A stretch of 64,000 bases of DNA from Bacilli bacterium (GCA_017937305.1 JAGBDV010000020.1:57309-121308); one strand, 5' to 3'; shown: positions 1 through 61,074, counted from the first letter of the stretch. Notes: generated by a model from the sequence alone, not told the origin. Numbers and translations: made by a program.

Positions 1-3000
1 GCGTTACTGTATTATCAAGTGCATTACCTGAAATTGTCTTTACAGAATATAGCCCTAACATGTTAAAAGGTGCTAGTCAAACTATTGGTTATAAGTTTAA
101 TCCAATTTATACTGATGCACAAGTAAGATGGGAATCTGCTAACCCAGATGTTGCAGTAGTTGACGAAAATGGTAAAGTTACTGCTGTTGCTGTTGGTGAA
201 GCTACTATCATTGCTTATGCTACTGATGGTGTTGATGAAAAAGCATTCGTATTAAAATTAAGTGTTAGTGAAAGTGATTTTGCTATTGAATACGTATTAA
301 ATGGTGGTGTTAACTCTGAAGCTAACCCTGCTGGTTATAATACTTTAAATACTCCACTTGAACTTCAACCTGCTACAAAACTTGGTTACAACTTCCTTGG
401 CTGGTATGCTGATGAAGAATTAACTCAAGAAGCTGGTAAGATTGCTGAAGGTTCTACAGGTGATGTTAAAGTTTATGCTAAGTGGGAAATTGTTAACTAC
501 AACATCAATTATGATCTTGATGGTGGTGTTAATGCTGAAGGTAACCCTGCTACATATACTGTAGAAGATGAAATCGTTCTTGGTGAACCTACTAAAGAAA
601 ATCACTCATTCTTAGGATGGGTTGATGCTGAAGGTAACACTGTTACTAAGATTGCTAAAGGCAGTGTTGGTGATGTTGCTGTTAAAGCTACTTGGAAATT
701 AGATGTATTTAATATTTCTTATGATCTAAATGGTGGTTCATTTGTTACTGGATATCCTTATGCATCTCATGCAGAATTAGTTGCTGATTTCGTTGTTGAT
801 TTCAATAAACATTCAGGTAAAACTGTTGCTGCTGATGGTTCTGACTTCTTCGCAAGAAGCTGGATGGCTGATGGTTCAAGTGCTGGTTATAAGTTCTTAA
901 CAAGTGCTGAATATGGTGCTAAATGGAGTTGGTTAATAAAATTAATCAATGATGGACGTGTTGCTAGAGGTGCTGCTGAACTTCAATCTACTGATGGACA
1001 AGCTGAAGCTCGTGGTGAAGTTCATACATTCTTAAATTTAACTGGTACTGCTAATACAGCTGGTTATGGTACAGATCGTACTGGTTTAACATTTGAAGAA
1101 TATGCTCCTAAATATTTACCATGTGATCCAAGTATTCCTGCTGTTGTATATCAATATGCAGTAGGTGTTGAAACATTATTACCTCTTGCTCAAAAAGCTG
1201 ATCATGAATTTATCGGATGGAGTGTTGCTAAAGAAGAAACAATTACTACTTCTGCTAATAGCAACTTCTGGGGTAACTATGCTAACCATATCTTCCTATT
1301 TAAATCAGCTAATGATGCAAAAGCTAAATTCTCGTTCCGTGCTTATATTGCACGTCAAGAAGATGGCTCATACGTTGTAACTAAGATTCAACAATCTGGA
1401 GAAGTTTCAGCTGTTGAAGGAGATTATACTTTATGTATTTCTGATAGTTATGGTAAATATGCTGAAACTAAAGCATTTAGAGAAGCTATTCAAGTTGGTG
1501 ACATCGTTAGTTTCGATGGTGATCCTTCTACTGGTAATACAACAATTAGCTTAGTTAAAATCTATGATAAGATTTCTGCTGATCAAATTGGAGATCTTAA
1601 CTTCAAGGCTTTATTTGCTGAATTAAGAGATGATTATGAATTATCATATGAATTAGATGGTGGTAAACTTTCTGATGGTGCTCCTAAACAATATTTATGT
1701 TCAACAGGATTAAAATTAGAAATGACTGCTTCTAAACCTGGTTACAAATTCTTAGGTTGGAGCTTAAGTAAAGGTGGAGAAATTATTGAAGAAATCCCTG
1801 CTGGAACAAGAGATCCTCAAACATTATATGCTATTTATGAAGCTGAAACTTACAAGATTGAATATGATACTAATGGTGGTACATTCTCAGTTGATTCTGT
1901 AGCTTATATTTATGATAATTATGAAGCAATTGTTGCTGATTTCTTAGCTGATTACTCTGCTAAATATGGATTATCTGGCTTAACTGCTGCAAACTTCAAC
2001 TCTAAATCTGCTAACTATGGCCTAGCTGCATTCTGGAAAGATGCTACTTTAGCTTCTAAGTGGGCTTGGTTACAAGAATTTATGTTAACTTACAATCCAA
2101 ATTACTCTGGTTTATCATACATGAAGAATGCTTCAAGTGCTGCTAATTACAACAAGTATTGGCGTGCTAACTTAGCTGCATTCCTACAACAAGGTAAAGT
2201 TACTTCTCCACTTTCTATGGACTTTACAGGACTTGACACTGAAGCTTGGTGGGCTGCATCAGTTCCAACTAAGATTGTTACAGTTGCTGCAAATCCTAAG
2301 TATGAATATACAGTAGAAGAACTTCCATTTGTTATTGAAGTTCCTATGCGTGATGGTGTAGAATTTGTTGGTTGGTGTTTCAATAATAAATATCGTGATG
2401 AATTCTTATCATTACCTGCTGGTACAGTTGGTGATATTAAACTATATGCTAAATGGTCTGATACTGAAGAAGTATATGAAACATTTGCTATTAATTATGA
2501 ACTAGACTTTGGACGTATTGAAGGTGAATATGTAAATTCTTATGTAGAAACAATCGGTGTTGCATCTCTTCCTACTCCTGTTAAAGTTGGTTATACATTC
2601 TTAGGTTGGACACTTGCTGCTGATTCTAGTGAATATGTAACTTCAATTGGTACAGAAGTTGTTGGTGATGTTACTTTATATGCTCAATGGGCAGAAAAAG
2701 AATCTTCAATGCCTAAAGTAATTAAAGTTGGTGCTGAAGAAGAATATAAGACTTTAGCTGATGCTATTGCTGCTGCTTCTAAGGGTGATACAATCGTACT
2801 TGCTGCTGGTGAATATGCTGGTGCTACAATTGATAAAGCATTAACTATTAAAGGTCCTAATGCTGGTGTTAACCCTAACACTGCAACTCGTGGTGATGAA
2901 GCTATCCTTTCTGGTGTATTAAAGATTTCTGCTGATAATGTTACTATTGATGGTATTGCATTAACTGGTGCTGGTAAACTTAAAGCTGATACTACTCAAA

Positions 3001-6000
3001 ATATTTCTAATTTAACATTTGTTAATATTTATGTATATGATTCAACTGTTAACGTTGGTAATGTAAGTACAGTTGCTCCATTTGAATTAAATGTTGATGG
3101 TTCTAATTTTGTTTCTGATGTATTAATCGCTAATTCTAAGATTATTACAAGCAACATTTCAAATGACCGTCCAATGATCGTTTATGCAACTAATATTAAG
3201 AACTTAACTATGGATAATAACTCATTTGTTGGTAGAAGAGTTAACTACAATGATGCTGTTAAACTTGGTAATGGTGCTTCTGTTGGTGTTACTGGTAATT
3301 TAATCATTACTAACAACTATTTTGAAAACTATGCTCAATACTTAATTTGGTTACAAAAATTTGGTGCTGTTAATGTATTAGTTGAAAACAATACATTCTT
3401 AAATAATGGTCAAACTGCAGGTTCTCACTGTGCTATCAGATTCCAAGCATATACTGGTGCTGCTACTGATGAAGTTAACTGTGAAATGTACTACAATACA
3501 GTTGATAATTCATACTTGTTATTAAAAGTTGATGCTGCTCCTGATGGTGCTAAATTTGTATGTAATTATAATACTGTTCAAAATAGTAAAGATACTCTTA
3601 TTGTTAAGAATGCTACTAAAGCTACTGTAACTTGTGATAGCAACTACTGGGCATTTGATTCTGTAACTGATGCAATGTTCGTTAATGCTACTCATACTAA
3701 CGATTTAACTGATGCTGAATCAATTCCTTCAAAAGAAGAATCTTGGTTAGAAGGTAAATTAATCGTTGGTGCTGATGCTGCTTATAAGACTCTTGCTGAA
3801 GCTTTAGCTGCTGCTAAAGAAGGCGATGAAATTTATTTAACAGCTGGTACTTATGATGAAGCTGTAACAATCACTGTTGCTAACTTAACAATTTATGGTC
3901 CTAACCATGGTGTTGCTGGTACTGCTGAACGTGCTGCTGAAGCTGTTCTTGCTCAACCTTTAACAGTTGAAGCTGCAGGATTTACAGTTGATGGTGTTCA
4001 ATTTGGTGCTGGATGTAATGTAGTTGTTAAAGCTAATAATGCTACAATTACTAATGTTCATAGTGTATCTACTAAGTTTGCAAAAGCTGGTGGAACTAAC
4101 CGTACTGCTGTTGTAACAACATCTGGTAAAGTTTCTAACTTTGAATTATCTAACTCATTCTTCAATACAGGTGCATCTTCTTACTTAAAAGGTGTATTTG
4201 CTAATGATGAAGCTGTTACAAATGCATTATTCAAGAATAACTTCTTTACTCATGAAAATACTGATAACACTTCAATTTCAGACTGTATCGCAATGTATAA
4301 CTCTGCTGGTGTTATTGAATTTATCGGTAATACATTTGAATGGGTAACTGATGACTGGTGTATTATGTTAGGTTCTACTGGTTGTGCTGCTGATGTTATT
4401 AACGTAATTGATAATAACTTCATTGGTAAGACTGTTGATGGATCTGAACTTTATACTTGTGGTATTATGCTACGTTGTGCTCCTGCTGGTTCAAAAGTTA
4501 ATGTAATCCATAACTATTTTGGTACATTAGCTGGTACTATTATTTCTGGTAGAAATTCAAAAGCTGGTGCTGAATATAATATTAAATACAATGTATTTGA
4601 AAATATGACTTACCGTCAAGATTCATCTAATATTGGTTCTGCTGCATTCAATTATGAAGGTAACTATTATGGTAAACCTGTTCACTCAAGTGCTACATAT
4701 TGTACAGACTATGGTACAGTAACTGATAAAGCTGTTTGTGATGAATTATATGTTGCTTGGAAAGTTGTTCAAGAAATTGGTACTCCTGAAGTTTATTCTA
4801 ACTTAAGTTATGAATTAAATGGTGGTACAATTGCTGCTGGTTATGACGTTAAATACTTAGAAGGTCAAAAAGTTGCTCTTTATGGTGCTACTAAAGAAGG
4901 TTATAAATTCTTAGGTTGGTCATTAGATGCTGAAGGAACAAAAGTTTATAAAGAAATCCAAAAAGATTGGACTGGCGATATCAAACTTTATGCTCAATAT
5001 GCTGAAATCTTTGACGTTGAATACGATCTAGATGGTGGTGCTGCTGAAGGTTTAGTTACATCTGCTGTTGATGGTACTAAAGTTGAACTTCCTACTCCTG
5101 AAAAATACGGTCACATCTTCTTAGGATGGACTTTAGAAAAAGGAACTGAAGATTATATTAAGAGTGTTGTTGTTACTGCTGATACTAAACTTTATGCTAA
5201 TTGGTTAGAAGCTACATTCTTCTATGTAGATTATGAACTAAATGGTGGTAGTATCTTATATGCTTCAAGAGATGCATTAATCGCTGATTGGCTAGTAGAC
5301 TACAACCTAGTATTAGGTAAGAGCTATGCTTCTACTGCTGATATCGCTACAGGTAACTTTGCTGATATCGATTATCATACATTCTTAGATTCTAAGACTG
5401 TTCTTAACAATGGTCAAACTCCAAGAGAAAAATGGTTATGGTTAGCTGAATACTTATATGAATTATCTGTAAGAGATGTTGCTTCTAATAACTGTAACGT
5501 TCTTGGTTTAAGAGCTTTAATTAATCAAACTGGTTATAGTGGTGATGCTATTTATGGTGTATCTTATGCATTCCGTGCATTCTTATTAGGTAGAACAATT
5601 CGTCCTAATTCAAGTTATACTTCAGTTGACCATTCAGTTTATGAAAATGCTAATGGTTTCTGGGCTAAATTAAGTGCTTCTGAACCTAAGCATTATGGAT
5701 ACTATGAAGAAACAGTATTACCTGCTGCTAACTTAGAAAATTACAAGTTTGCTGGTTGGTATAAAGATGCTGAATTCACTGGTGAACCTGTTACTAAGGT
5801 TTCTCATGCTGATGATGGATTAAAACTTTATGCTAAATTCGTTGAAGCTACTCCTGTAACAAGTGTAACTATTGATAATAAATTTGCTGAAATGAAGAGA
5901 TTTGAAACTTACCAATTAACTTGGACAGTTAATCCTTCTGATGCAAGCATCCAACAAGTTGCATTCGCATCAAGCAATCCTGAAGTTGCTAGTGTTGATG

Positions 6001-7556
6001 ATAAAGGTTTAATCACAGCAGTTGCTGATGGTAAGACTACTATTACAATTACTTCTAAATCTGCATCTGGTGCAAAAGATTCATTCGAATTAGTTGTTTA
6101 CTCTCCAGATCATTTCGAAATTGCTTATGAAACAGAAAGTTATGTTGCAATTGATGGTACAGTTAACTTACTTGCTGAATACATCAAACGTGATGGTTCT
6201 AAAGAAGCTCTAACTTGGTCTTCTGTAACTCCTGAAATTGCTACAGTTGATGCTAATGGTAAAGTTACTGGTGTTAATGCTGGTGTTGCTACTATTCGTG
6301 TAGCTGTTACAAGCAATACTGAAATCTATCAAGATTTCGTTGTAACTGTTCTTGAAGCTGAAGTTTCTGAAGCAGTTCAACATGTTATTGATGCTCATGA
6401 AAGTAATGTATTTACTAGATACGATTTAGGTATTGGTGCTGGCTCTGCTCCTGCATACTATGCTGATATCTTTGGATCAATTAGTAAGATTCTTTACAAT
6501 CAACCATTAGTAATTGATGAACAATTCAAATCTGCTGGTGATGCTACTGGTAACTACTATGTAAATGAAGGTATCGAATTCGTTACTGTTCACTACACAG
6601 GTAATATGGCTCCTGGTTCAACAGCTAAAGCTAATGCTAATTACTTCGTTCAAGCTTCAAGTGGTGTATCTATCCACTATGTTACTGGTAATGATGGTGT
6701 TTATAGCTGCTTAAGCCACGATAAAGGTGCATGGCATGCTGGTGACTCTGGTGCTTACTCTACTGTTGGTGCATTCAAGTGGATGCCTACAGGTGTTATG
6801 TATGATGATTGTGATCTATTAAAAGTTAAATTCACTGCTTCTGATGACTTCTATTATGAAATCAATGGTAAGAAGACAACAATTCCACTACCTAAGACTT
6901 ATAATCATAAAGAAAGAAATACTGATCACATTTACAATGCTGATGGTACAATTTCTGCTCAACCTGATTATGATAACTGGGGTCAAACATTTGCTAATAG
7001 AACTCCTGAAAGCTTCTTCAATGATCAAGACTTCCCTATCACTGTTGTAGATGGTGAATACTACATGGGTACAACTTGGTGGAGTTATGGTCAAGTTTAC
7101 GAAGGACGTATCTGTGGTTCTGGTGGTAATAGAAACTCTATCGGTATCGAATCTGCAGTTAACCCTGAATCAGACTTATGGTTAACATGGCAAAAGACTG
7201 CACAATTAGTTGCTCAATTATGTGTTCAATATGACTTAGGTCTTGAAAGAATTAAAGGTCACCACTTCTTTGATGGTAAGGATTGTCCTCAACCATTATT
7301 AGAAAATGATCTTGAAATTTGGTGGGAATTCATCGAATTAGTAAGATATGAAATGGCTCTATTAACAACATTAAAAGATGCTGGATTCAAACTTACTGTT
7401 GATGAAAACTGTGCTTCATTCGTTGGTGAAAACGGACGTATTGAATCTCAACCTGAATTTGCTCAAGTTATCGAATATACAGTAGAAGTTACTGTTGGTG
7501 ATAAAGTTGAAACTATCACTCTTGCTTCATCTGTAAATGGTATTTACAGCAAATAA
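1..7556 (+). CDS. Giant surface protein, 5'-partial (open to window edge). Big_2 Ig-like domain at N-terminus; many Listeria-Bacteroides (Flg_new) repeats; two tandem right-handed parallel beta-helix (PbH1) modules (~2715-3680, ~3760-4790); two Big_2 domains (5860-6350); C-terminal Amidase_2 (MurNAc-L-Ala amidase/PGRP) domain (~6360-7310).
   Basis: The 60..7556 frame stays open upstream to position 3 (TVLSSALPEIVFTEYSPNM looks like Big_2). YxLNGG...GYxFxGW repeat units recur throughout. The YKTLA(D/E)A(I/L)AAAxxGDxIxLxAGxY beta-helix starts occur twice. The amidase region carries AWHAG, NSIGIE and HHF..GKDCP motifs. Confidence 0.8.
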   Translation, partial: VTVLSSALPEIVFTEYSPNMLKGASQTIGYKFNPIYTDAQVRWESANPDVAVVDENGKVTAVAVGEATIIAYATDGVDEKAFVLKLSVSESDFAIEYVLNGGVNSEANPAGYNTLNTPLELQPATKLGYNFLGWYADEELTQEAGKIAEGSTGDVKVYAKWEIVNYNINYDLDGGVNAEGNPATYTVEDEIVLGEPTKENHSFLGWVDAEGNTVTKIAKGSVGDVAVKATWKLDVFNISYDLNGGSFVTGYPYASHAELVADFVVDFNKHSGKTVAADGSDFFARSWMADGSSAGYKFLTSAEYGAKWSWLIKLINDGRVARGAAELQSTDGQAEARGEVHTFLNLTGTANTAGYGTDRTGLTFEEYAPKYLPCDPSIPAVVYQYAVGVETLLPLAQKADHEFIGWSVAKEETITTSANSNFWGNYANHIFLFKSANDAKAKFSFRAYIARQEDGSYVVTKIQQSGEVSAVEGDYTLCISDSYGKYAETKAFREAIQVGDIVSFDGDPSTGNTTISLVKIYDKISADQIGDLNFKALFAELRDDYELSYELDGGKLSDGAPKQYLCSTGLKLEMTASKPGYKFLGWSLSKGGEIIEEIPAGTRDPQTLYAIYEAETYKIEYDTNGGTFSVDSVAYIYDNYEAIVADFLADYSAKYGLSGLTAANFNSKSANYGLAAFWKDATLASKWAWLQEFMLTYNPNYSGLSYMKNASSAANYNKYWRANLAAFLQQGKVTSPLSMDFTGLDTEAWWAASVPTKIVTVAANPKYEYTVEELPFVIEVPMRDGVEFVGWCFNNKYRDEFLSLPAGTVGDIKLYAKWSDTEEVYETFAINYELDFGRIEGEYVNSYVETIGVASLPTPVKVGYTFLGWTLAADSSEYVTSIGTEVVGDVTLYAQWAEKESSMPKVIKVGAEEEYKTLADAIAAASKGDTIVLAAGEYAGATIDKALTIKGPNAGVNPNTATRGDEAILSGVLKISADNVTIDGIALTGAGKLKADTTQNISNLTFVNIYVYDSTVNVGNVSTVAPFELNVDGSNFVSDVLIANSKIITSNISNDRPMIVYATNIKNLTMDNNSFVGRRVNYNDAVKLGNGASVGVTGNLIITNNYFENYAQYLIWLQKFGAVNVLVENNTFLNNGQTAGSHCAIRFQAYTGAATDEVNCEMYYNTVDNSYLLLKVDAAPDGAKFVCNYNTVQNSKDTLIVKNATKATVTCDSNYWAFDSVTDAMFVNATHTNDLTDAESIPSKEESWLEGKLIVGADAAYKTLAEALAAAKEGDEIYLTAGTYDEAVTITVANLTIYGPNHGVAGTAERAAEAVLAQPLTVEAAGFTVDGVQFGAGCNVVVKANNATITNVHSVSTKFAKAGGTNRTAVVTTSGKVSNFELSNSFFNTGASSYLKGVFANDEAVTNALFKNNFFTHENTDNTSISDCIAMYNSAGVIEFIGNTFEWVTDDWCIMLGSTGCAADVINVIDNNFIGKTVDGSELYTCGIMLRCAPAGSKVNVIHNYFGTLAGTIISGRNSKAGAEYNIKYNVFENMTYRQDSSNIGSAAFNYEGNYYGKPVHSSATYCTDYGTVTDKAVCDELYVAWKVVQEIGTPEVYSNLSYELNGGTIAAGYDVKYLEGQKVALYGATKEGYKFLGWSLDAEGTKVYKEIQKDWTGDIKLYAQYAEIFDVEYDLDGGAAEGLVTSAVDGTKVELPTPEKYGHIFLGWTLEKGTEDYIKSVVVTADTKLYANWLEATFFYVDYELNGGSILYASRDALIADWLVDYNLVLGKSYASTADIATGNFADIDYHTFLDSKTVLNNGQTPREKWLWLAEYLYELSVRDVASNNCNVLGLRALINQTGYSGDAIYGVSYAFRAFLLGRTIRPNSSYTSVDHSVYENANGFWAKLSASEPKHYGYYEETVLPAANLENYKFAGWYKDAEFTGEPVTKVSHADDGLKLYAKFVEATPVTSVTIDNKFAEMKRFETYQLTWTVNPSDASIQQVAFASSNPEVASVDDKGLITAVADGKTTITITSKSASGAKDSFELVVYSPDHFEIAYETESYVAIDGTVNLLAEYIKRDGSKEALTWSSVTPEIATVDANGKVTGVNAGVATIRVAVTSNTEIYQDFVVTVLEAEVSEAVQHVIDAHESNVFTRYDLGIGAGSAPAYYADIFGSISKILYNQPLVIDEQFKSAGDATGNYYVNEGIEFVTVHYTGNMAPGSTAKANANYFVQASSGVSIHYVTGNDGVYSCLSHDKGAWHAGDSGAYSTVGAFKWMPTGVMYDDCDLLKVKFTASDDFYYEINGKKTTIPLPKTYNHKERNTDHIYNADGTISAQPDYDNWGQTFANRTPESFFNDQDFPITVVDGEYYMGTTWWSYGQVYEGRICGSGGNRNSIGIESAVNPESDLWLTWQKTAQLVAQLCVQYDLGLERIKGHHFFDGKDCPQPLLENDLEIWWEFIELVRYEMALLTTLKDAGFKLTVDENCASFVGENGRIESQPEFAQVIEYTVEVTVGDKVETITLASSVNGIYSK

Positions 7557-7568
7557 TTAAACAAATTA

Positions 7569-7609
7569 AAATGGTTAATGCGAAAGCATTAGCCATTTTC
7601 TTTTTTTTT
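7569..7609 (+). terminator. Rho-independent terminator: 12-bp stem with GAAA loop, then a T-run.
   Basis: aatggttaatgc-gaaa-gcattagccatt followed by ttcttttttttt, directly after the giant-gene stop. Confidence 0.8.
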
Positions 7610-7619
7610 AAATTATAAA

Positions 7620-7628
7620 GTGGTATAA
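7620..7628 (+). promoter_or_regulatory. Extended -10 (TGgTATAAT) promoter element upstream of map.
   Basis: tggtataat lies 27 bp before the map ATG. Similar TGaTATAAT boxes occur at 14240, 35206, 36624, 44092 and 46044. Confidence 0.45.
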
Positions 7629-7654
7629 TATATAAGATAAAAGAGGTGAATATA

Positions 7655-8479
7655 ATGAATGAAGCTTATGAAAAGATTAAAAATCGTTTATTAGAATATA
7701 AAAAGAAAAACTATATAGTTCCTACTGAAAAAATGATTAAAACAAAAGAACAAATTGAAGGAATTAAGGCTGCTGGTGTAATTAATACGGCAATTCTTGA
7801 TATGGTGGAAGAAAACATTAAAGCTGGAATGTCTACAGAAGATATTAATAAACTTGTTCATAATTTTACTATTTCTCATGGGGCTATTCCTGCTCCACTT
7901 AATTATGAAGGGTTTCCTAAAAGTGTGTGTGTATCTGTAAACGATTCAGTATGTCATGGAATTCCATCAAAAAAATTGATACTTAAAAATGGAGATATTG
8001 TAAATGTAGATGTTACTACAATTTATAAAGGTTATTATGCCGATGCATCAAGAATGTATATTATTGGTGAAGCAAAGGAAAATGCTAAAAAGTTAGTAAA
8101 AGTTACTAAAGAATGTTTAGAACTTGCTGTTAATGCAATAGTTCCATGGGAGACTAGACTTGGTGATCTAGGCGATATTATTCTTACCCATGCAAGAAAA
8201 AATGGATATAGTGTAGTTAGAGAAATTGGTGGTCATGGTGTAGGACTTGAAATGCATGAAGATCCATATGTTTCTCATGTAGGAAAAAAAGGGACTGGAA
8301 TGCTAATTGTACCGGGTATGGTATTTACTATTGAACCAATGGTAAATGAAGGAAGTAGATTAATTTATCAAGATAGTAGAAATGGTTGGACTATTTATAC
8401 TTATGATGGAAAGTTATCTGCACAGTGGGAGCATACTATTGTTGTAACAGAAGATGGTTGTGAAATTATAACTCATTAA
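7655..8479 (+). CDS. map: Methionine aminopeptidase type I.
   Basis: Full-length MetAP-I fold motifs are present (HGIP, DxVNVDV, EIGGHGVGLEMHEDP, FTIEPM). ATG 7655 has a GAGGTG RBS with 6-nt spacing; the tracked start at 7646 is a GTG inside the RBS. Confidence 0.9.
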   Translation: MNEAYEKIKNRLLEYKKKNYIVPTEKMIKTKEQIEGIKAAGVINTAILDMVEENIKAGMSTEDINKLVHNFTISHGAIPAPLNYEGFPKSVCVSVNDSVCHGIPSKKLILKNGDIVNVDVTTIYKGYYADASRMYIIGEAKENAKKLVKVTKECLELAVNAIVPWETRLGDLGDIILTHARKNGYSVVREIGGHGVGLEMHEDPYVSHVGKKGTGMLIVPGMVFTIEPMVNEGSRLIYQDSRNGWTIYTYDGKLSAQWEHTIVVTEDGCEIITH

Positions 8480-8498
8480 TTAAGAGGAGAATAGCTTT

Positions 8499-10253
8499 AT
8501 GAAAGAAATTTTACTAACATTTAAAAGACTAACATGGTTCTTTAAAGCAAATCTTAAAAATTATTTATTTTGTGCATTAGCACTATTATTTGTTTCTGTA
8601 ATGCCAGTAATCCCTACTAAGGTACTTGGTATTGCAATAGATGATATAGTTATGGGGAGTGTAACTATAGATAGAATAATTCTATACATTATGGGGTTAT
8701 TAGTAATTCCAGTATTTATATATTGTGTAAATATTTATTATCATTATACAATGAATAAACTAGGTCAAGATATTTCATATAAATTAAGAGAACAGTATCT
8801 TGAACATTTATTTGAACTGGACTCTTCAATTTATGAAAAATATACTAAAGGTGATTTAATAGCAAGAATATCAAATGATTTAACTACAGTAAGTGGCCTA
8901 GCAACATCTTTTTTGCAAAATGTTATTTATTATTTTGTCACTATTGTTGCTTCAATAACTATGATGGTAGTTATTAATCCTATTCTTTGTCTTGTATCCA
9001 TTGTATTTATGCCTTTTGCGATATTTATTTTAAATAATATCAGAAAGAGAAAAAGACAATATTATAAAAAACATCATGAAATTTATGGGGAAATGACAGA
9101 AAATGTTCTTGAATCCATCGAAAGTGCAAAAACAGTTAGAGCATATGGTATGGAAGAAGAAGACTATAAAAAGACTAAAACAGCAATTGATAATGATACT
9201 AACTCTTGGTGGTATATTCAAATGTTTGAGTCATTATTTGTACCAATGTTTGAACTTATTTATGCTGTAGCGTATTTTATTGCAATAGGATTAGGTACTT
9301 ACATGGTGATTAAATCTATCATATCTCCTGGTGATTTAGTTAGTTTCTTACTATATGTTGGAATGCTTTATGGTCCACTAATTGGTTTAAGTAATGTCTT
9401 AAACACAATTAGTAGCATTAATATTGCATCACAAAGATTCTTTGAAATTATGGATTTAGATACTGAAGTCCATGATGTTACAAATCCATTAAATATAATG
9501 AAATTTAATGAAATAAAATTTAAAGATGTAAACTTTAAATTTCCATTTGATGATTTTAACGTTTTATCCAATATTAATTTAACAATAAAAAGTGGTGAAA
9601 CAATAGGTATAGTTGGTCCTACTGGAAGTGGTAAATCTACTTTAATAAGACAATTATTAAGAGAATTTAATATTAGTAGTGGAACTATTTTGATTGATGA
9701 TATTCCAATTGAGAATTATAAGATAGATGACATTAGAATGATGGTAGGTTATGTTCCTCAAGAACATATTTTGTTTAGAAGAAGTGTTGATGATAATATT
9801 TTAATAGGTAATCCTAAAGCCTCACATGAAGAAATTGATAATGCAATGACAGTTGCAGATTTTAAAAAAGATTTAAATGAATTATCAAGTGGTGAACACA
9901 CTTTAGTAAGTGAACTAGGTGGATCTTTATCTGGTGGACAACGTCAAAGATTGTCAATAGCACGTGCTTTAGTAAAAGATCCTGAAATTTTAATTTTAGA
10001 TGATTCTTTAAGTGCTGTTGATGCATTAACTGAAACAAATATTATTAAACAATTAAAAGAAACAAGAGTAGGTAAGACTAATATTATTGTTGCACATTGT
10101 TTTAGTGCGATAGCTCTTGCAGATAAAATTATCGTTCTACAAGGTGGAAAAATAACCGATATAGGTACTCATCATGAATTATTAAAATATGATAACTGGT
10201 ATAAGATGCAATATCTTATTCAAATAAAAGGTGATAATCATGAAGAACTATAG
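8499..10253 (+). CDS. ABC transporter permease/ATP-binding protein (type I exporter, half-transporter).
   Basis: Six-TM N-terminal domain; Walker A GPTGSGKST; LSGGQRQR signature; Walker B ILILDD. Confidence 0.85.
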   Translation: MKEILLTFKRLTWFFKANLKNYLFCALALLFVSVMPVIPTKVLGIAIDDIVMGSVTIDRIILYIMGLLVIPVFIYCVNIYYHYTMNKLGQDISYKLREQYLEHLFELDSSIYEKYTKGDLIARISNDLTTVSGLATSFLQNVIYYFVTIVASITMMVVINPILCLVSIVFMPFAIFILNNIRKRKRQYYKKHHEIYGEMTENVLESIESAKTVRAYGMEEEDYKKTKTAIDNDTNSWWYIQMFESLFVPMFELIYAVAYFIAIGLGTYMVIKSIISPGDLVSFLLYVGMLYGPLIGLSNVLNTISSINIASQRFFEIMDLDTEVHDVTNPLNIMKFNEIKFKDVNFKFPFDDFNVLSNINLTIKSGETIGIVGPTGSGKSTLIRQLLREFNISSGTILIDDIPIENYKIDDIRMMVGYVPQEHILFRRSVDDNILIGNPKASHEEIDNAMTVADFKKDLNELSSGEHTLVSELGGSLSGGQRQRLSIARALVKDPEILILDDSLSAVDALTETNIIKQLKETRVGKTNIIVAHCFSAIALADKIIVLQGGKITDIGTHHELLKYDNWYKMQYLIQIKGDNHEEL

Positions 10254-12285
10254 AAGATTATTTAAATTTTTAAAGGGGAAAATGCATTGGTTTTTCATTA
10301 GCTTATTAATGATTATTATCATTCAGGCTCTAGCATTCGTTTCTCCACTTTTAGTTAAAACTGTTTTAGATGATTATATTTTGGGTATTGAATATGAATG
10401 GAAGCAAGTAGAGGAGAATGATGAATATACTGTTTCATATAATAATTTATTTTATAAACAAACTAGATTCATAGACGAAAATGACACTATAATTAAAGAT
10501 GTTAGTATTGTCCTTTATAAAAATGGTTTTTATTTTATTGATGATAAGGTAGTTGGTGGAAACAAAGAAATTAAAGAAGAAAATGACTTATTTATTTTAA
10601 ATACCTCATTTGATGGTAAGAATATTTCTTATGAAGCTATTAAATTAAACAAAGTTGAAGTGTTTGCATTTTATGAACCAGTAATACCTCACTTAGTGTT
10701 CTTTATAATAGTTATTTTTGTAAAAACTATTATTACAATAGTATGTGGCTTTATACAAGCATTCTCTATTAATAAGGTAGTTAACTATTTAGCTAACGAA
10801 GGAAGAACAAGAGCATTTAAAAATATTGAATTTTTACCAATTTCATATTTTGAAGAAGAACCTGCTGGGAAAATGGCAACAAGAATTACTAAAGATGTAG
10901 ATGGTATGATCATTATGTATCGTCAATTATTATTGCTATTTGCAACAGCTATCTTAAGTTTTATCCTTGCTTATGTAGGAATGTTTATTCTAAATTATAA
11001 ATTAGCTCTATTAACGTTTATAGCTTATCCAATAATATATTTATGGATTAGATTCTTCTTGAAGAAATTGAAGAATATCGCAGAAAGAGTAAATGAATCA
11101 AGAAGTTTACTTACTGCTAAAATAAACGAAATAATTAATGGTATTCAAATTTTACAAGTATTTAATTTTAAAAAGCAAACTGTTGATGAATTTAATCAAA
11201 TAAACGAAGACTACCGCAAAGAACAATTAAAAGAAGTAAAGCTTAGTACTACTCTTGGTTGGAATATGATTAATATTATGAGAGCATCTATAACAACATT
11301 AATTGTTGTGTATTTTGGAATTCAACATTTGAATGTTGCAGATGTGATTATTACGGCTGGATTAATATATGCCTATAATGATTATTTATCAAGAATTGTA
11401 GAACCAATTAATATTATTTTTACTCAAATTGGTGCATTTGAGCATTCACATGTTCAAGTAGATCGTATTCATAAAATTATTGAAGCTCCTATTGAAAATA
11501 AAGATAAAGAATTTATTGAAAGATATAAAGGAGATATAAAATTTGATAACGTATGGTTTAGTTATATTAAAGGCGAATATGTTTTAAAAGGTGTTACTAT
11601 TGATATTAAAGCAGGTCAAATGGTGGGTTTAGTTGGTCACACTGGTAGTGGAAAGAGCTCTATGATGAATTTATTACTAAGATTTTATGATATAACAGAT
11701 CCATTATCTGGAGCTATTTATGTAGATAATATGGATATTAGTAAGATTTCAAAAAGAACATATCGTTCTAATATTGGTATTGTTTTACAAGAACCTATTA
11801 TGTTAAAAGGTGATATTGCTTCAAATATTAGATTTGGCTTAGATAACATTAGTGATGAAGAGATAGTACGCGTCTTAACTGCTATGGGTGGGGACAAATT
11901 AATTAAAAAATTCCCTGATGGTATACATCAAGAACTTTCAAGAAAAGGTGTAAATATGAGTGCTGGAGAAAAACAAATTATTAGTTTAGCTCGCGCAATT
12001 ATTCGTAATCCATCTATTTTAATTATGGATGAAGCTACTTCACACATCGATACAGAGACGGAAAATATCATAAAGCAATCTTTGGAGTATGCGTGTAAAA
12101 ATAGAACTGTAATTGTAATTGCACATAGACTTTCTACCATTTATAATGCTGATAATATTATTGTTTTAGACCATGGAATTAAAGTAGAAGAAGGTAATCA
12201 TGACTCTTTAGTAAAACAAAATGGTGTTTACGCAAATATATATCGGTCTCAGGTTGCAAACATCAAAGATCTTAAGAATTTGTAA
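10240..12285 (+). CDS. ABC transporter permease/ATP-binding protein; heterodimer partner of the upstream exporter.
   Basis: GHTGSGKSS Walker A, MSAGEKQ signature, IMDEATS Walker B. Overlaps the upstream gene by 14 nt, implying translational coupling. ATG 10240 is preferred over GTG 10231. Confidence 0.85.
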   Translation: MKNYRRLFKFLKGKMHWFFISLLMIIIIQALAFVSPLLVKTVLDDYILGIEYEWKQVEENDEYTVSYNNLFYKQTRFIDENDTIIKDVSIVLYKNGFYFIDDKVVGGNKEIKEENDLFILNTSFDGKNISYEAIKLNKVEVFAFYEPVIPHLVFFIIVIFVKTIITIVCGFIQAFSINKVVNYLANEGRTRAFKNIEFLPISYFEEEPAGKMATRITKDVDGMIIMYRQLLLLFATAILSFILAYVGMFILNYKLALLTFIAYPIIYLWIRFFLKKLKNIAERVNESRSLLTAKINEIINGIQILQVFNFKKQTVDEFNQINEDYRKEQLKEVKLSTTLGWNMINIMRASITTLIVVYFGIQHLNVADVIITAGLIYAYNDYLSRIVEPINIIFTQIGAFEHSHVQVDRIHKIIEAPIENKDKEFIERYKGDIKFDNVWFSYIKGEYVLKGVTIDIKAGQMVGLVGHTGSGKSSMMNLLLRFYDITDPLSGAIYVDNMDISKISKRTYRSNIGIVLQEPIMLKGDIASNIRFGLDNISDEEIVRVLTAMGGDKLIKKFPDGIHQELSRKGVNMSAGEKQIISLARAIIRNPSILIMDEATSHIDTETENIIKQSLEYACKNRTVIVIAHRLSTIYNADNIIVLDHGIKVEEGNHDSLVKQNGVYANIYRSQVANIKDLKNL

Positions 12286-13334: not shown

Positions 13335-14201
13335 ATGAAAGAAAATAAAATTGCTGTAATAGGATTAAGTGGAGAATCTATTTTTATGAAAATGGACCAT
13401 TTTAACCAAGAGGGTGAAACTGTAATAGCTAGTACATATCATGTTGAATATGGTGGTAAAGGATTTAATCAAGCCGTTGCTGCTAAAAGATTTGGTGCTA
13501 ATGTATCATTTCTTACATTGTGTGGTGATGATGAAATTGCAGAAAAAGTAGAAAAAACACTTAAAGATGAAAATATTAATTCTATAGTTATTAAAAGAAA
13601 AGCATCACGTAGTGCATCAGCTTGTATTATGATTGATAAGAATGGAAGAAATAGAGTTGTTTGTTATCCTGGTGTATCTAGCATGATGACTAAGGAAGAT
13701 GTAAGATTATTTGAAAATGAAATTAAAACAAGTAAATACTTATTATTACAACTTGAAATGAGTGATGAATCATTAGAAGAAGCAGTGAGACTTGCAAAAA
13801 AATATGATACTTTAGTTGTATTAAATCCTGCTCCAGCTAAAGAATTACCAATTGGATTATTAAAAGATGTTTATTTACTTACTCCTAATGAACAAGAAGC
13901 TAATGTTATCTTTAAAGATAAAAAATTAGATGAATTAGAATTTGAAAATGTTATTATTACGCTTGGAGAAAAAGGCTCTGTAGTAAAAGAAAAGAATGAA
14001 TTATCAGTAATTACTGCAAAGAAAGTGACGGCAATAAATACAACTGGTGCTGGAGATACATATAATGGTGTATTAGTTGCTGCCCTTTTAGAAGGGAATA
14101 ATTTATTAGAATCTGCTAAACTTGCAGGCATTGCATCTACAATTTCAGTGACTAAGGAGTTTGTAATTGATTCAATTCCTTATCGTAAGGATATTAAATA
14201 A
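13335..14201 (+). CDS. rbsK: Ribokinase (PfkB family).
   Basis: N-terminal GG dipeptide motif (YGGKGFNQA) and C-terminal NTTGAGDTYNG anion-hole motif. Confidence 0.8.
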   Translation: MKENKIAVIGLSGESIFMKMDHFNQEGETVIASTYHVEYGGKGFNQAVAAKRFGANVSFLTLCGDDEIAEKVEKTLKDENINSIVIKRKASRSASACIMIDKNGRNRVVCYPGVSSMMTKEDVRLFENEIKTSKYLLLQLEMSDESLEEAVRLAKKYDTLVVLNPAPAKELPIGLLKDVYLLTPNEQEANVIFKDKKLDELEFENVIITLGEKGSVVKEKNELSVITAKKVTAINTTGAGDTYNGVLVAALLEGNNLLESAKLAGIASTISVTKEFVIDSIPYRKDIK

Positions 14202-14287: not shown

Positions 14288-16084
14288 ATGATTTACAAGA
14301 CTATATTAACACCAGAAGAAGCATCAAAAGACTTCTTAGAAAATGAAAAACAATTCCACTTAGGTGTTATTCCAACAGAACAATCAAATCCTATTACTAA
14401 AAATTTAAGTGCAACAATTGCAAGAAGTACTGCTGAAGGTATTAAATTAATCTTAGCTGCAGACAAGTATATTCCTGCAAAAGCTAAAGAAGCTTTCCAT
14501 ACTCCTGAATTCGAAGCATTAGTAGATGCAATCGTTAGCGCTATGAATAATCATAAGACTGTTCTATTCTCTTCAGTAGGTGCATCTGGTCGTATGGCTA
14601 TCCAATTAGATGCTGCTTGGAGATATTTCTGGACATCTTTAACACAAATTTTACCTGCTAAAAAAGAAGAATTAATGAAGATTAGTGAAGTAACTAATTC
14701 TCATACTACAGGTGGTGACCGTGCTTTAGTTCACTCAGTTGAAAACTTCGAAGACTATTTAACATTTGGTCGTCAACAAGTTATTGAAGCAAATGTAGGT
14801 CCTGGTGACGTTGTAGTTGCTTTAGCTGAATGTGGTCTTTCTGCATCTGTTAATGGTGCTGCATTACAAGGTCAAGAAAATGGATGTAAAACATTCTATT
14901 TATACTGTAATCCAAAAGAAATTTTATATGCTCACTTAGATAGAGTTAAAGAATCATTTGATCGTCCTGACATTATCAAAATTCCTCTATTTGTTGGTAA
15001 CATGGCTGTTGCTGGTTCAACTCGTATGCAAGTTACTACAGTTGAATTATTAGTTGCTGGTGCTGCTTTAGAAGCTGCTGCTTATAAATGGATGCAACAA
15101 CATCTAACTGAAGATGAATTAAAAGTTGTTAATGTTGCTGGTAAAGGTGCATTAGACTTAGATGCATATGCAGATGCTCATCAAGATTTATTAGATCAAT
15201 TATCTCAAGGTGCTGCACTTGAAGGTTTAACAAAAGCTGTTGAACTTGAATATAATACTTATATGGAAAAAGGTTTAGTTACTTATCTTACTCATGATTA
15301 TTTACTAGATATCATGACAGATACTACAGAACGTCAACCTACATTTACGCTTCCTCCATTTAAGAAATTTGCTGACAAAGAAGCACAAGTTAGCTGGGCT
15401 TATGTAAAAGACCCACTATATCCTAATACAGTTGCATGGCAACATTTATTCCGTCGTCCTATTAAAGGTTTAGAATGGGGTAAAGAAGATTATATTAGAA
15501 TGAACGCTGATCAACAAATCATTAACAATCCTCCACATGTAAGTGGTGAAGAAGTATTAGATTACAACATTGGTAATGAAGTTGATGAATCTCGTTATTC
15601 ACGTAAACCAGCAAGACTTTTATGTATGGATATTAACAATTCTGCTAATAAAGATGTTCTTGCTTGGTTCAATAATGAAAAAGGTAAATTCTCTGAAGGT
15701 TATGTAATTCGTTTTGGTGAAATCACTGATGAAGTTAAGAATGATAAAGAAATTCATATTCCAGTTAAACTTCCTCGTACATGTACAGATTTAATGACTC
15801 ACTTATTAATTAAATTATCATTTAACTTAATGTCTACAGCTACAATGGCTAAGATGGGTAGAGTATTTGGAAACTGGATGGTTCAAGTTTTACCTACTAA
15901 TAAGAAGTTAATTGACCGTTCTACAAGAATTATTGCAAACCTTGCAAAGATTCCTTATGAACAAGCAAACCTTGAATTCTTCAAATCTTATTATAATCGT
16001 AAACCAGAAGATGAATACAAACAATCTTATGTTGTTGAAACATTATTAAGACTTGGTTTCGATCCAACTAAAGATATCGAATAA
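14288..16084 (+). CDS. SIS-domain protein of the MurQ/GckR family (N-acetylmuramic acid-6-phosphate etherase-like), double length (~600 aa).
   Basis: MurQ-like motifs in order: TEQSNPITKNLS, GASGRM, CNP, GSTRMQ, and LMSTATMAKMGRVFGNWMVQVLPTNKKL (MurQ has [27 protein letters not shown]). Confidence 0.55.
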   Translation: MIYKTILTPEEASKDFLENEKQFHLGVIPTEQSNPITKNLSATIARSTAEGIKLILAADKYIPAKAKEAFHTPEFEALVDAIVSAMNNHKTVLFSSVGASGRMAIQLDAAWRYFWTSLTQILPAKKEELMKISEVTNSHTTGGDRALVHSVENFEDYLTFGRQQVIEANVGPGDVVVALAECGLSASVNGAALQGQENGCKTFYLYCNPKEILYAHLDRVKESFDRPDIIKIPLFVGNMAVAGSTRMQVTTVELLVAGAALEAAAYKWMQQHLTEDELKVVNVAGKGALDLDAYADAHQDLLDQLSQGAALEGLTKAVELEYNTYMEKGLVTYLTHDYLLDIMTDTTERQPTFTLPPFKKFADKEAQVSWAYVKDPLYPNTVAWQHLFRRPIKGLEWGKEDYIRMNADQQIINNPPHVSGEEVLDYNIGNEVDESRYSRKPARLLCMDINNSANKDVLAWFNNEKGKFSEGYVIRFGEITDEVKNDKEIHIPVKLPRTCTDLMTHLLIKLSFNLMSTATMAKMGRVFGNWMVQVLPTNKKLIDRSTRIIANLAKIPYEQANLEFFKSYYNRKPEDEYKQSYVVETLLRLGFDPTKDIE

Positions 16085-23184: not shown

Positions 23185-23448
23185 TTAAAATTTCTTTAAT
23201 ATGTCATGGTGACCGATATCAACTAAAATAATTAGTTCTTCATGTTCAAAATACCATATAATTCTTATATCCATATTAATGCTACTTTCATAAAGATCTT
23301 TTTGACCTTTTATCTTTTTTGTTCTTAATGATGGATGTAATACATTTTCCACAAACAACTTCATTTTATTTTGAAACTGAATTTGTTCATTATTAGTAAG
23401 ATTATTAAAAGCTTTTTTAAATCTTTCAGTATATGCTAATTTATACAT
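23185..23448 (-). CDS. Type II toxin, RelE/ParE superfamily.
   Basis: 87 aa with ...RIIWYFEHEELIILVDIGHHD, characteristic of RelE/YoeB-like mRNA interferases. Directly downstream of and 4 nt apart from the antitoxin gene. Confidence 0.65.
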   Translation of the reverse strand: MYKLAYTERFKKAFNNLTNNEQIQFQNKMKLFVENVLHPSLRTKKIKGQKDLYESSINMDIRIIWYFEHEELIILVDIGHHDILKKF

Positions 23449-23451
23449 AAG

Positions 23452-23718
23452 CTATTCCTTACTATCATCTTTAAGACTCTTTAATAAATCATCTACATTA
23501 TTAAATGTATTATATTCGAATTTTACATCCTCCCTCAATACTTGGATTTCTTCTGCTAATTTTAATATATATTCTTTAGGGTATACAGCGACAGGTTCAA
23601 GCTTAATACTACCATTTTCAATTGATGCTTCAAATTTATCTCCTTCTTGTAAATTTAAATTTTTTACAATTTCCTTTGGCAACGTGATTTGTGATTTCTT
23701 TCTTAATTCAATAATCAT
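23452..23718 (-). CDS. Type II antitoxin, AbrB/MazE/SpoVT-type looped-hinge helix DNA-binding domain.
   Basis: 88 aa beginning MIIELRKKSQITLPKEIVKNLNLQEGDKFE (swapped-hairpin AbrB fold motif) with an acidic C-terminal tail. Confidence 0.65.
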   Translation of the reverse strand: MIIELRKKSQITLPKEIVKNLNLQEGDKFEASIENGSIKLEPVAVYPKEYILKLAEEIQVLREDVKFEYNTFNNVDDLLKSLKDDSKE

Positions 23719-24011: not shown

Positions 24012-24035
24012 TGACTTATAGACACATTCTAATGG
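24012..24035. repeat. Direct repeat copy 2 (tgacttatagacacatTctaatgg), overlapping the 3' end of tRNA-Leu.
   Basis: See copy 1. An adjacent palindrome atgaatc-aaa-gattcat lies at 23988-24009. Confidence 0.6.
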
Positions 24036-24118
24036 TGCCAGTGGCGGGACTCGAACCCGCACGGTATTGCTACCAAAGGATTTTGAGTCCTTCGCGTCTA
24101 CCATTTCACCACACTGGC
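24033..24118 (-). tRNA. tRNA-Leu (anticodon CAA), 86 nt with encoded CCA.
   Basis: Reverse complement is GCCAGTG...; acceptor stem GCCAGTG/CACTGGC; anticodon loop CU-CAA-AA; long variable arm; T-arm GGTTCGAGTCC. Confidence 0.9.
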
Positions 24119-27911: not shown

Positions 27912-28616
27912 ATGGTGTTTAAAATTAGATTAATAGAAGAAAAAGATAATTTAGAAATAGAAAAAATTATTCGTGATTGTTTAATAGAATATGGAGTTAA
28001 TCATGAAGGTACCGCATGGCCCGATGAATTCTTATGTAGATTATCTTTTGTTTATAGTGAGCCTAAAACTGCTTATTATGTGGCAGTTGATGAAAATGAA
28101 AATATTGTTGGTGGATGTGGTGTTGGGAAAATTGAAGGAGTAGAAAACACTTGTGAACTACAAAAAATGTATTGTATAAAAAGTGTTAGAAATACCACTG
28201 TTTTAAAACAATTACTTGATGCATGCTTAAGTTTTGCGAAGAAATATTATAATTCTGTGTATTTAGAAATTCTTGAAAATAGGGATGATGAAAAGGAATT
28301 TTTTGAAAAAAATGGGTTTAAGAAAACTAATGAAAGACTTGGTGATACAGGAAATAATAATAATGCGTCTTATTTATTAAAATTTAAGACAGTAGGTTTT
28401 TTAGAAGAGTTTTTTGGAGAATTTTTTGTAGAATTAATTGGTATAATAATTTGTTTTGTTGCGGGGATTTTTATTTGTTCATTATTTCCTAAAAAATGTC
28501 AAGAAGAATTAGATATTGAAGGTATAATTGGAATAGGTGGCGGAGGCCTTTTAATTTTTGGATTATTATTAGGGGCAATTGTTTATTTATTTAAACGCAG
28601 AAAGGATAAAAAATAA
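27912..28616 (+). CDS. GNAT N-acetyltransferase with C-terminal TM anchor.
   Basis: GNAT motif A region (VGGCGVGK..). Two C-terminal TM helices. Confidence 0.55.
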   Translation: MVFKIRLIEEKDNLEIEKIIRDCLIEYGVNHEGTAWPDEFLCRLSFVYSEPKTAYYVAVDENENIVGGCGVGKIEGVENTCELQKMYCIKSVRNTTVLKQLLDACLSFAKKYYNSVYLEILENRDDEKEFFEKNGFKKTNERLGDTGNNNNASYLLKFKTVGFLEEFFGEFFVELIGIIICFVAGIFICSLFPKKCQEELDIEGIIGIGGGGLLIFGLLLGAIVYLFKRRKDKK

Positions 28617-32271: not shown

Positions 32272-32332
32272 ATTGGTTGAAACATATAGTTTTATATGTA
32301 TCAATATAATATTTTAGAAAGGGGGATTTATT

Positions 32333-32968: not shown

Positions 32969-32999
32969 TTATTAATTAATAGTTAGGAAGGGAAAAGGT

Positions 33000-54140: not shown

Positions 54141-54154
54141 GAGGGAAGATTAAA

Positions 54155-60247: not shown

Positions 60248-60285
60248 TAGTTATTTATAAAAATAATTTAGGAGGCTAGAAAATT

Positions 60286-61062: not shown

Positions 61063-61074
61063 TAACTTATAGTT

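Follow-up and report, generated by a model that had tools for sequence, protein, structure and literature searches.

The closest described relatives of the protein module reported here are amidases of the XlyA/PlyL/CwlA type. XlyA (Bacillus subtilis PBSX prophage), PlyL, and PlyG (B. anthracis prophage and phage gamma) have a contiguous catalytic domain of approximately 150–160 amino acids (aa) and a C-terminal wall-binding domain, and are found in phage lysis cassettes. The large surface proteins Atl of Staphylococcus aureus, AtlE of S. epidermidis, and Aas of S. saprophyticus have an amidase near the N-terminus and GW/SH3b-type wall binding, undergo propeptide processing, and are not lipoproteins. 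Escherichia coli AmiD is a lipoprotein. It is active on N-acetylmuramic acid (MurNAc)-L-Ala and anhydro-MurNAc-L-Ala bonds (PMC6403190). Amidase_2 domains are usually joined to LysM, SH3b, CWB1/2, SLH, SPOR, PGB1, CW7, and other modules (PMC6403190). We analyzed a 64,000-nucleotide (nt) stretch of DNA from an uncultured Bacilli bacterium of the gut (GCA_017937305.1, JAGBDV010000020.1:57309-121308), hereafter the window. A giant lipoprotein gene occupies its first 7.5 kb (positions 1–7556, + strand) as a single open reading frame (ORF), which is open at the left edge of the window, ends with a stop codon at 7554–7556, and agrees with the gene call on a longer contig. The subject of this study is the C-terminal module of its product, defined as the last 398 codons of the gene (6360–7553); residue numbers count within this module.

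The module is very probably a zinc-dependent N-acetylmuramoyl-L-alanine amidase with the Amidase_2 fold, that of T7 lysozyme and peptidoglycan recognition proteins (PGRPs), as indicated by sequence comparison and a structural model. A preliminary description of the window had placed an Amidase_2 domain at 6360–7310, and this assignment was confirmed. The Pfam profile Amidase_2 (PF01510, IPR002502) matched in two stretches with an E-value of 5.5e-19 (69.2 bits against a cut-off of 26). The best match in a phmmer search of PDB sequences, with the translation of 6240–7553 as the query, was the PBSX prophage amidase XlyA (3hmb; E-value 9.4e-14). This match also consisted of two pieces, query residues 113–171 corresponding to XlyA 27–85 and query residues 294–355 to XlyA 86–147. 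By these scores, the Amidase_2 match at this position is far beyond chance. AmpDh2 and AmpD appeared for the module only at an E-value of 0.05 or far down the list of fold matches.

The four motifs quoted in the preliminary description (HYTGN, AWHAGD, NSIGIE, and HHFFDGKDCP) are all located within the interval given there. The alignment with XlyA and PlyL assigned His78 in VHYTGN (6591–6593, + strand) as a zinc ligand and Glu264 in NSIGIE (7149–7151, +) as a catalytic residue. GHHFFDGKDCP would supply two further zinc ligands, His301 (7260–7262, +) and Cys309 (7284–7286, +), and the catalytic Lys307 (7278–7280, +). The His of AWHAGD, read in the module itself, is encoded at 6735–6737 (+). H78, E264, H301, K307, and C309 aligned pairwise to H29, E90, H129, K135, and C137 of PlyL and to the equivalent residues of XlyA; PDB 2ar3 is the E90A mutant of PlyL. 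The N-terminal half of the core (6576–6752, +), equivalent to XlyA 27–85, contains His78 and WHAGD and was delimited by Pfam, phmmer, and the alignment. The C-terminal half (7119–7364, +) contains Glu264, His301, Lys307, Cys309, and a closing helix, and was delimited by phmmer, the alignment, and the model.

A check of the zinc ligands, proposed in the preliminary description, found His/His/Cys together with Glu and Lys intact, and all five residues were invariant in an alignment of 58 sequences (the module and 57 homologues). We also compared the module with its 89%-identical ortholog at locus L004 (metagenome-assembled genome (MAG) RGIG7674, JAFZDT01). The ratio of nonsynonymous to synonymous substitution rates (dN/dS), a single pairwise estimate, was 0.09 for the core, 0.19 for an insertion in the core, 0.21 for the segment preceding the core (the prelude), and 0.33 for the C-terminal tail. 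All four parts appear to be under purifying selection. These data bear on the possibility that the module is a non-catalytic, PGRP-like domain that binds peptidoglycan for adhesion only. The PGRP/Amidase_2 fold is binding-only in many animal PGRPs, and the remainder of the giant protein is adhesin-like, both of which are in keeping with such a role. However, the invariant residues include the Cys that is missing in binding-only PGRPs, and the core shows the lowest dN/dS value. Because the catalytic residues are invariant and purifying selection is apparent, a degenerate, binding-only domain is very unlikely, and we give the adhesion-only explanation scarcely any weight.

We modeled the 398-aa module with AlphaFold2 using the family alignment. 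The model is a single compact unit with a predicted local distance difference test (pLDDT) score of 95.2 and a predicted template modeling score of 0.94, and it shows the alpha/beta fold of T7 lysozyme and PGRPs. Foldseek superimposed the core on XlyA (3rdr/3hmb) with a target-normalized template modeling (TM) score of 0.87–0.89 and a root-mean-square deviation of 2.3–2.7 Å; the matches after XlyA were PlyL, PlyG, AmiA, LytA, and AmpD. The query-normalized TM score to XlyA and the other structures was approximately 0.36, as the matched structures cover less than half of the module. The two outcomes that the preliminary description had named as speaking against an amidase, degenerate ligands or a better match to a non-amidase fold, were not observed, as the ligands are intact and the best fold match is XlyA.

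The core is split by a beta-rich, family-specific insertion of 122 aa (6753–7118, +), in agreement with the approximately 120 aa previously noted between AWHAG and SIGIE. Since the two pieces of the XlyA match end at residue 85 and resume at residue 86, the insertion falls exactly between consecutive residues of XlyA. A contiguous domain of approximately 125 aa is typical of Amidase_2 (PMC6403190), and the split core is a variant of this arrangement rather than a reason to exclude the module from the family. W141, N169, G170, P178, and Y234 of the insertion are kept in at least 90% of the 58 aligned sequences. Modeled alone, the insertion gave a pLDDT of 91.8, and Foldseek found no PDB fold match for this insert-only model (best E-value 1.7). 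No credible Pfam match was obtained for the insertion, prelude, or tail at E-values up to 10, and NCBIfam gave nothing for the module. An insertion-only HMMER scan of 1.84 billion representative proteins retrieved 81 proteins of up to 4,105 aa, in essentially all of which the insertion lies 150–270 residues from the C-terminus. Given this constant C-terminal context, the insertion exists only in this module. Weak repeat-like insertion matches in P0178, P0186, and P0191 (E-values 4.5e-6 to 8e-4) looked spurious when the sequences were read. Choline-binding-type wall-binding repeats, considered for the FYYEINGKKT and GEYYMGTTWW hairpins, found no support in the searches.

The preliminary description stated that the protein ends with the Amidase_2 fold; this needs correction, as the core is flanked on both sides. 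A conserved 72-aa prelude (6360–6575, +; HESNVF...GIGAG..YY.DI.GS.SK), identified from the alignment and the model, consists of a helix and a beta hairpin and packs on the amidase core in the model (pLDDT 89–98). Its Y33 and S40 are kept in at least 90% of the 58 sequences. The core is followed by a 63-aa three-stranded beta tail, which together with the stop codon spans 7365–7556 (+), likewise defined by the model and alignment. The tail strands are at residues 341–347, 369–379, and 382–392 (pLDDT 93–98), and G359 and Y373 are conserved in relatives. In the model, the insertion, prelude, and tail enlarge the surface around the core.

These additions raise the question of the substrate. The insertion enters the chain approximately 10 residues before the strand bearing the catalytic Glu and has no known fold, the prelude and tail add further surfaces, and the poly-gamma-glutamate synthase genes pgsB and pgsC are located approximately 8 kb upstream in a near-identical strain. 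An amidase with a groove reshaped by the insertion for a substrate other than peptidoglycan, such as a different glycopolymer of the surface or an amide from the host or the diet, would be compatible with these features. However, the catalytic constellation is unchanged, and we know of no Amidase_2 member that acts beyond MurNAc-L-Ala or anhydro-MurNAc-L-Ala bonds. We therefore consider a non-peptidoglycan substrate improbable.

The full-length product of the giant gene is 2,627 aa, as called on ena:ERZ28654807 (XIEF21-1_SAMN15830134 scaffold_81, 227,763 bp), and the window encodes 2,498–2,517 of these residues. The placement of the amidase on a giant extracellular protein in the preliminary description is supported, and this protein has a lipoprotein signal. 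The start codon is at L001:1175, approximately 330 nt 5' of the window. The protein begins with MNLRKRIFLVLVSLLVVLGIAAC-TSA, which represents a lipoprotein signal peptide: it has a basic n-region, a hydrophobic core, and the lipobox IAAC, which follows the pattern [LVI][ASTVI][GAS]C. The gene has a promoter-like sequence of its own, TTGTCA-17-TATAAT (11/12 matches), located downstream of the terminator of the preceding gene. Downstream of the stop codon, a terminator-like hairpin with a 12-bp stem, a GAAA loop, and a following T-run was read directly from the sequence (7570–7609, +). From these two elements, the giant gene appears to be monocistronic. No Rfam element was found near it. Upstream of the amidase, Pfam recognized eight stretches of Flg_new (Listeria-Bacteroides repeat), three of Big_2, and three Big-like stretches. 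Flg_new and Big_2 modules had been noted previously; the "beta-helix" modules noted with them, two stretches of approximately 350 aa, gave only sub-threshold Pfam matches (Pectinesterase, E-value 0.004; DUF1565, E-value 0.07). Pfam detected only Flg_new, Big_2, Big-like, and Amidase_2 in the giant protein and no recognized wall-binding module.

To describe the family, we used a word-indexed protein search, which gave 284 relatives, most of which span the whole module with the insertion, and a scan of one genome per GTDB species, which gave 316 encoded relatives. The per-locus family counts below draw on the best 80 of these 316. All 80 are from uncultured gut MAGs of ruminant, human, chicken, and other hosts. 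Their labels are Bacilli, Erysipelotrichaceae, 'Staphylococcus sp. CAG:324', 'Coprobacillus sp. CAG:698', uncultured Mollicutes, Acholeplasmatales UBA11505, and Acholeplasma sp. OttesenSCG-928-E16. The module is always C-terminal: for all 79 modules examined, the protein continues for 75–106 residues beyond the KxCP motif and then ends. Complete members are between 361 and 2,303 aa long, and partial sequences of more than 2,400 aa also occur. A regular-expression search found a lipobox in at least 34 of the 46 complete members; three more are lipoprotein-like but truncated by the choice of start codon, and three have Sec-type signals. Several MAGs carry three to five copies of the module among the best 80 alone, often in tandem.

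The nearest solved structures, XlyA, PlyL, and PlyG, are prophage or phage lysins, and the module could accordingly be a prophage endolysin or a recent phage remnant fused by chance to a surface protein. However, the hallmarks of phage endolysins, a lysis cassette and relatives in phage genomes, were not found. Searched with the family profile, IMG/VR yielded a single weak match (27% identity), too short to include the insertion, and BFVD structures matched the core alone (query-normalized TM score at most 0.37). No phage genes surround the amidase in the window, its neighbors being a methionine aminopeptidase (MetAP) gene, ATP-binding cassette (ABC) transporter genes, and an MscS gene. The arrangement is syntenic in L004, and the relatives form a large family of cellular lipoproteins. 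Judged by these searches, the module family is cellular, not viral. A phage origin is effectively refuted and is the least probable of the explanations considered here. Even taken together, the binding-only, phage-remnant, and non-peptidoglycan-substrate explanations carry little probability.

A tandem paralog (L001:1-981) is located directly upstream of the window and ends approximately 190 nt before the giant gene. Its 703-aa product contains Flg_new, Big_2, and Amidase_2, the last with a shorter (approximately 80 aa) version of the insertion, and its module is approximately 30% identical to that of the window. In a 98%-identical strain (L088), the paralog gene encodes only 466 aa. The paralog subfamily is larger, with 537 matches, many of which are proteins of 360–390 aa without a signal peptide. 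These signal-less proteins might be cytoplasmic recycling amidases resembling AmpD. Many family members of approximately 900–1,300 aa have a Cys/His-rich motif, C-x-H-x-H-x-Y ... P-T-C-T-E-x-G-Y, directly after the lipobox (L041, L046, L048, L051, L052, L053, L057, L059, L062, L063, L066, L067, L069, and the third module ORF of L045, 10372-13098). The motif is confined to the first 40 or so residues, is absent from the window protein, and looks like a small zinc-binding module.

We infer the enzymatic activity, topology, and substrate of the giant protein as follows. Zinc would be bound by His78, His301, and Cys309, with Glu264 and Lys307 as the catalytic residues, as in PlyL and XlyA. The prelude, split core, insertion, and tail would fold into one 398-aa unit. 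After export, a lipid on the N-terminal Cys would anchor the protein to the external side of the cell membrane, and the Flg_new/Big_2 stalk, tens of nanometers in length, would hold the distal amidase off the membrane. There, the enzyme would cut the MurNAc-L-Ala bond and strip stem peptides from peptidoglycan. The substrate would be the wall of the producer itself and wall debris, in an autolysin/adhesin-type role, and the released peptides would then be salvaged by a surface endopeptidase of the YkfC type. This statement as a whole, comprising the amidase function and an own-wall role with peptide salvage, seems to us to have an even chance of being correct. The own-wall role alone is narrowly favored, and our confidence in it is much lower than in the molecular function. 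It is the default for enzymes of this type, and it fits the walled relatives described below and a lineage without sortases and classical autolysins.

The candidate for peptide salvage is encoded 29 kb downstream of the amidase. This 714-aa lipoprotein (MKKIIWLSIIVFSLLSFSC; 36665–38809, +) consists of five Flg_new repeats followed by SH3_6 and NlpC/P60 (37640–38806). Among solved structures, it is most closely related to the gamma-D-glutamyl-L-diamino-acid endopeptidases 3m1u, 3h41 (YkfC), and 3npf/3pvq. The peptides that an amidase releases begin with L-Ala, and enzymes of the YkfC type accept such free stem peptides. The endopeptidase may process the stem peptides released by the giant protein, a functional coupling that we only infer. 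A MurQ/GKRP-like protein of 598 aa is encoded 7 kb downstream of the amidase gene (14288–16084, +), adjoining a gene for a PfkB/ribokinase-type kinase (13335–14201, +). It scored 129 bits against an NCBIfam cut-off of 168, matched Pfam GKRP_SIS_N and the GKRP lid, and was related to PDB 4s12 (E-value 5e-16). As the score is below the family cut-off, a role in MurNAc catabolism is a lead only, and the gene could be for amino-sugar salvage or unrelated.

Both genes also bear on the possibility that the amidase acts in trans. The stalks would bind other bacteria or debris, and the enzyme would strip foreign stem peptides, either for harvest of peptides and amino sugars or for weakening of competitors or prey; this would also cover the case of a wall-less producer. 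The Flg_new-bearing endopeptidase lipoprotein and the MurQ/GKRP-like gene in the same window are compatible with this possibility, as is the published suggestion that bacteria of these orders depend on scavenged muropeptides (PMC10868615). The presence of the family in MAGs labeled Acholeplasmatales, Acholeplasma sp., and Mollicutes points in the same direction. So do a constant enzyme on variable stalks in proteins of up to 4,105 aa, several copies per genome with tandem duplicates, and the lack of a classical wall-binding domain in the giant protein. On the other side, relatives with the same giant protein are walled, and the MurQ-like protein looks GKRP-like and is below its cut-off. A Pfam census of 148 flanking genes revealed no recurring transporter or recycling partner of family members, only housekeeping neighbors such as RsmE, a MiaB-like radical-SAM enzyme, cyclophilin, and MetAP. 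Action in trans is thus a possible, tentative alternative that we rate below the own-wall reading.

The choice between these two depends in part on whether the producer has a wall. The window is 28% G+C and uses the standard code, with long ORFs under table 11, and an NCBI MAG labeled 'Bacilli bacterium' (proteins MBP3504449–MBP3504492) is of the same species. The MAG names suggest that the lineages carrying the family are the orders RFN20, RF39, ML615J-28, and Acholeplasmatales; no literature linking CAG-324 with RFN20 was found. Two genome surveys report that these orders mix walled and wall-less members (PMC10868615, PMC7301438). Sortases are absent in RFN20 and ML615J-28, and most lyt/cwl hydrolases and penicillin-binding proteins (PBPs) were lost early in these orders (PMC10868615). 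mraY was detected in 14% of RFN20 genomes versus 87% of RF39 genomes (PMC7301438).

We searched for cell-wall genes, as the preliminary description had advised. No mur, pbp, or sortase gene was found in approximately 94 kb of the species genome (the window, its flanks, and the near-identical strain), which is not evidence of absence. A Mur_ligase_M gene upstream in the near-identical strain is not a Mur ligase but encodes PgsB. When 1 Mb of retrieved loci was searched with motifs and Pfam, peptidoglycan-synthesis genes were detected in relatives only. A protein search with the PBP of a relative gave only orthologs of at least 55% identity, all from other species. In L008, L009, and L034 (region approximately 7200–11100), the orthologous giant gene is directly followed by rsmH (mraW). 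In L008 and L009, a class B PBP gene comes next, the product of which in L009 has Transpeptidase, PBP_dimer, and PASTA domains; a division/cell-wall cluster begins with these genes. The corresponding interval of the window, which extends to a conserved ABC-F gene, contains genes for MetAP, two ABC exporters, MscS, the kinase, and the GKRP-like protein. Family members in L020 and L038 have Mur ligase genes adjacent to them or nearby, and a further related species (L084) has PBP-murE-mraY-murD. Judging from gene content, the nearest informative genomes are walled. The wall-less, Acholeplasma-like premise of the preliminary description is not supported, as relatives with the same giant protein carry PBP, Mur ligase, and mraY genes.

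A wall-less producer, belonging to a peptidoglycan-deficient branch of the RFN20/Acholeplasmatales radiation, would make the amidase-tipped giant proteins a contact-dependent feeding apparatus on walled neighbors or debris. Stem peptides would be eaten via the YkfC-type endopeptidase and the MurQ-like enzyme, and the amidase would be adapted to the intact sacculi of other bacteria by its insertion and accessory segments. We consider this combination as a whole unlikely.

Several observations weigh against the favored own-wall role. The giant protein lacks the wall-binding modules usual for Amidase_2 autolysins: its amidase is not joined to GW, SH3b, LysM, CWB, or similar modules. The constant enzyme is combined with highly variable stalks (361 to more than 4,000 aa), and small genomes contain at least three to five copies, including tandem duplicates. 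This copy number is above the need of housekeeping autolysis and resembles the targeting of varied outside surfaces. The enzyme is at the far end of the stalk, possibly beyond the wall of its own cell. The adjacency to rsmH or PBP genes was found in just 3 of 78 loci, and the census of 148 flanking genes gave housekeeping neighbors only. The walled relatives are not close, since their ABC-F protein is just 68% identical to that of the window organism. Part of the clade is, moreover, predicted to be peptidoglycan-deficient (PMC10868615, PMC7301438).

Other genes of the window and its surroundings also encode putative surface proteins. A GDSL lipase/esterase lipoprotein of 775 aa with Flg_new repeats is encoded at 28616–30943 (+). 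It is the third protein of the window to combine a Flg_new stalk with a hydrolase tip, which suggests that the organism uses this design generally. A SipW-like signal peptidase is encoded in each of two clusters, at 31567–35129 (+; peptidase 31567–32271) and 59480–62079 (+; peptidase 61075–62079). The first also encodes proteins with SipW-dependent (TasA/camelysin-type) signal peptides (32333–32968 and 33000–35129), and the clusters may encode surface fiber or biofilm-matrix systems. In the near-identical strain, pgsB and pgsC are above the NCBIfam cut-offs (L088:2-1596, −), approximately 8 kb upstream of the amidase paralog. The stretch from these genes to the paralog contains class I fumarase genes and also encodes two AstE/AspA-like zinc hydrolases, DUF6305, and a Flg_new protein of 1,163 aa. 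It is possible that this organism produces a capsule of poly-gamma-glutamate.

A purine riboswitch (RF00167; 36456–36551, −) scored 54 bits against a gathering score of 37 and lies upstream of a gene for a small membrane protein of the Imp-YgjV family on the minus strand. A YafQ-like toxin/MazE-like antitoxin pair (approximately 23185–23718, −) adjoins tRNA-Leu(CAA) (24033–24118). A complete de novo pyrimidine operon (pyrB, pyrC, carA, carB, pyrK, pyrD, pyrF, and pyrE) is present in the window (46157–55463, +), which indicates a genome less reduced than those of classical Mollicutes. A CrtO-family gene (glycosyl-diaponeurosporenoate acyltransferase; 40894–41364, +) hints at carotenoid-type membrane lipids, which are a trait of Acholeplasma and staphylococci.

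The enzymatic assignment is not new, since pipelines already label relatives as 'N-acetylmuramoyl-L-alanine amidase (CwlA)'. In the limited literature that could be searched, we found no description of the split 398-aa module, its restriction to gut lineages, or its giant-lipoprotein architecture, and nothing relevant on amidases in Acholeplasma or wall-less Mollicutes. What is new is the package: a 398-aa module with a split Amidase_2 core and an insertion of unmatched fold, which always forms the far end of lipoproteins whose stalks vary greatly and is present in several copies per genome. The family is confined to poorly known gut lineages between Erysipelotrichales and Mollicutes, in which peptidoglycan has repeatedly been lost. 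This distribution makes it a concrete marker for the roles of hydrolases during wall loss, candidates for which are autolysis, muropeptide scavenging, and attack on neighbors. Muropeptide scavenging has been proposed from genome surveys but has lacked candidate enzymes. Peptidoglycan fragments released in the gut are also immune signals to the host. Interest in the family would rise considerably if the producer were wall-less. As the module is small, confidently predicted, and easy to express, the question is experimentally tractable.

Compared with known systems, sequence and model together place the module of the giant protein within Amidase_2 (NALAA-2), nearest to the XlyA/PlyL/CwlA branch. 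The module has its fold in common with XlyA, PlyL, PlyG, and the CwlA type, as well as the use of His/His/Cys as zinc ligands and of Glu and Lys in catalysis, with the motifs agreeing residue for residue. Unlike in these lysins, the core of the window module is split by the unmatched 122-aa insertion and wrapped by two segments, the module forms the C-terminal end of a lipoprotein of 2,627 aa, and the family is absent from viral collections. AmiD is likewise an Amidase_2 protein with an N-terminal lipid anchor that acts outside the cytoplasm. However, AmiD is small, resides in a Gram-negative outer membrane, and has neither a repeat stalk nor an insertion, and its relation to the window protein is at the superfamily level. 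Atl, AtlE, and Aas are likewise large surface proteins that combine Amidase_2 with attachment repeats, and the AmiA and AmiE domains were structural matches to the module in Foldseek. In contrast to these proteins, the window protein has a C-terminal enzyme and Flg_new/Big_2 repeats, with no known wall-binding module. The protein encoded at 36665–38809 shares SH3b and NlpC/P60 with the YkfC/dipeptidyl-peptidase VI family, and differs from YkfC in being a 714-aa lipoprotein with five N-terminal Flg_new repeats; the repeats and the lipoprotein signal suggest that it is displayed on the surface.

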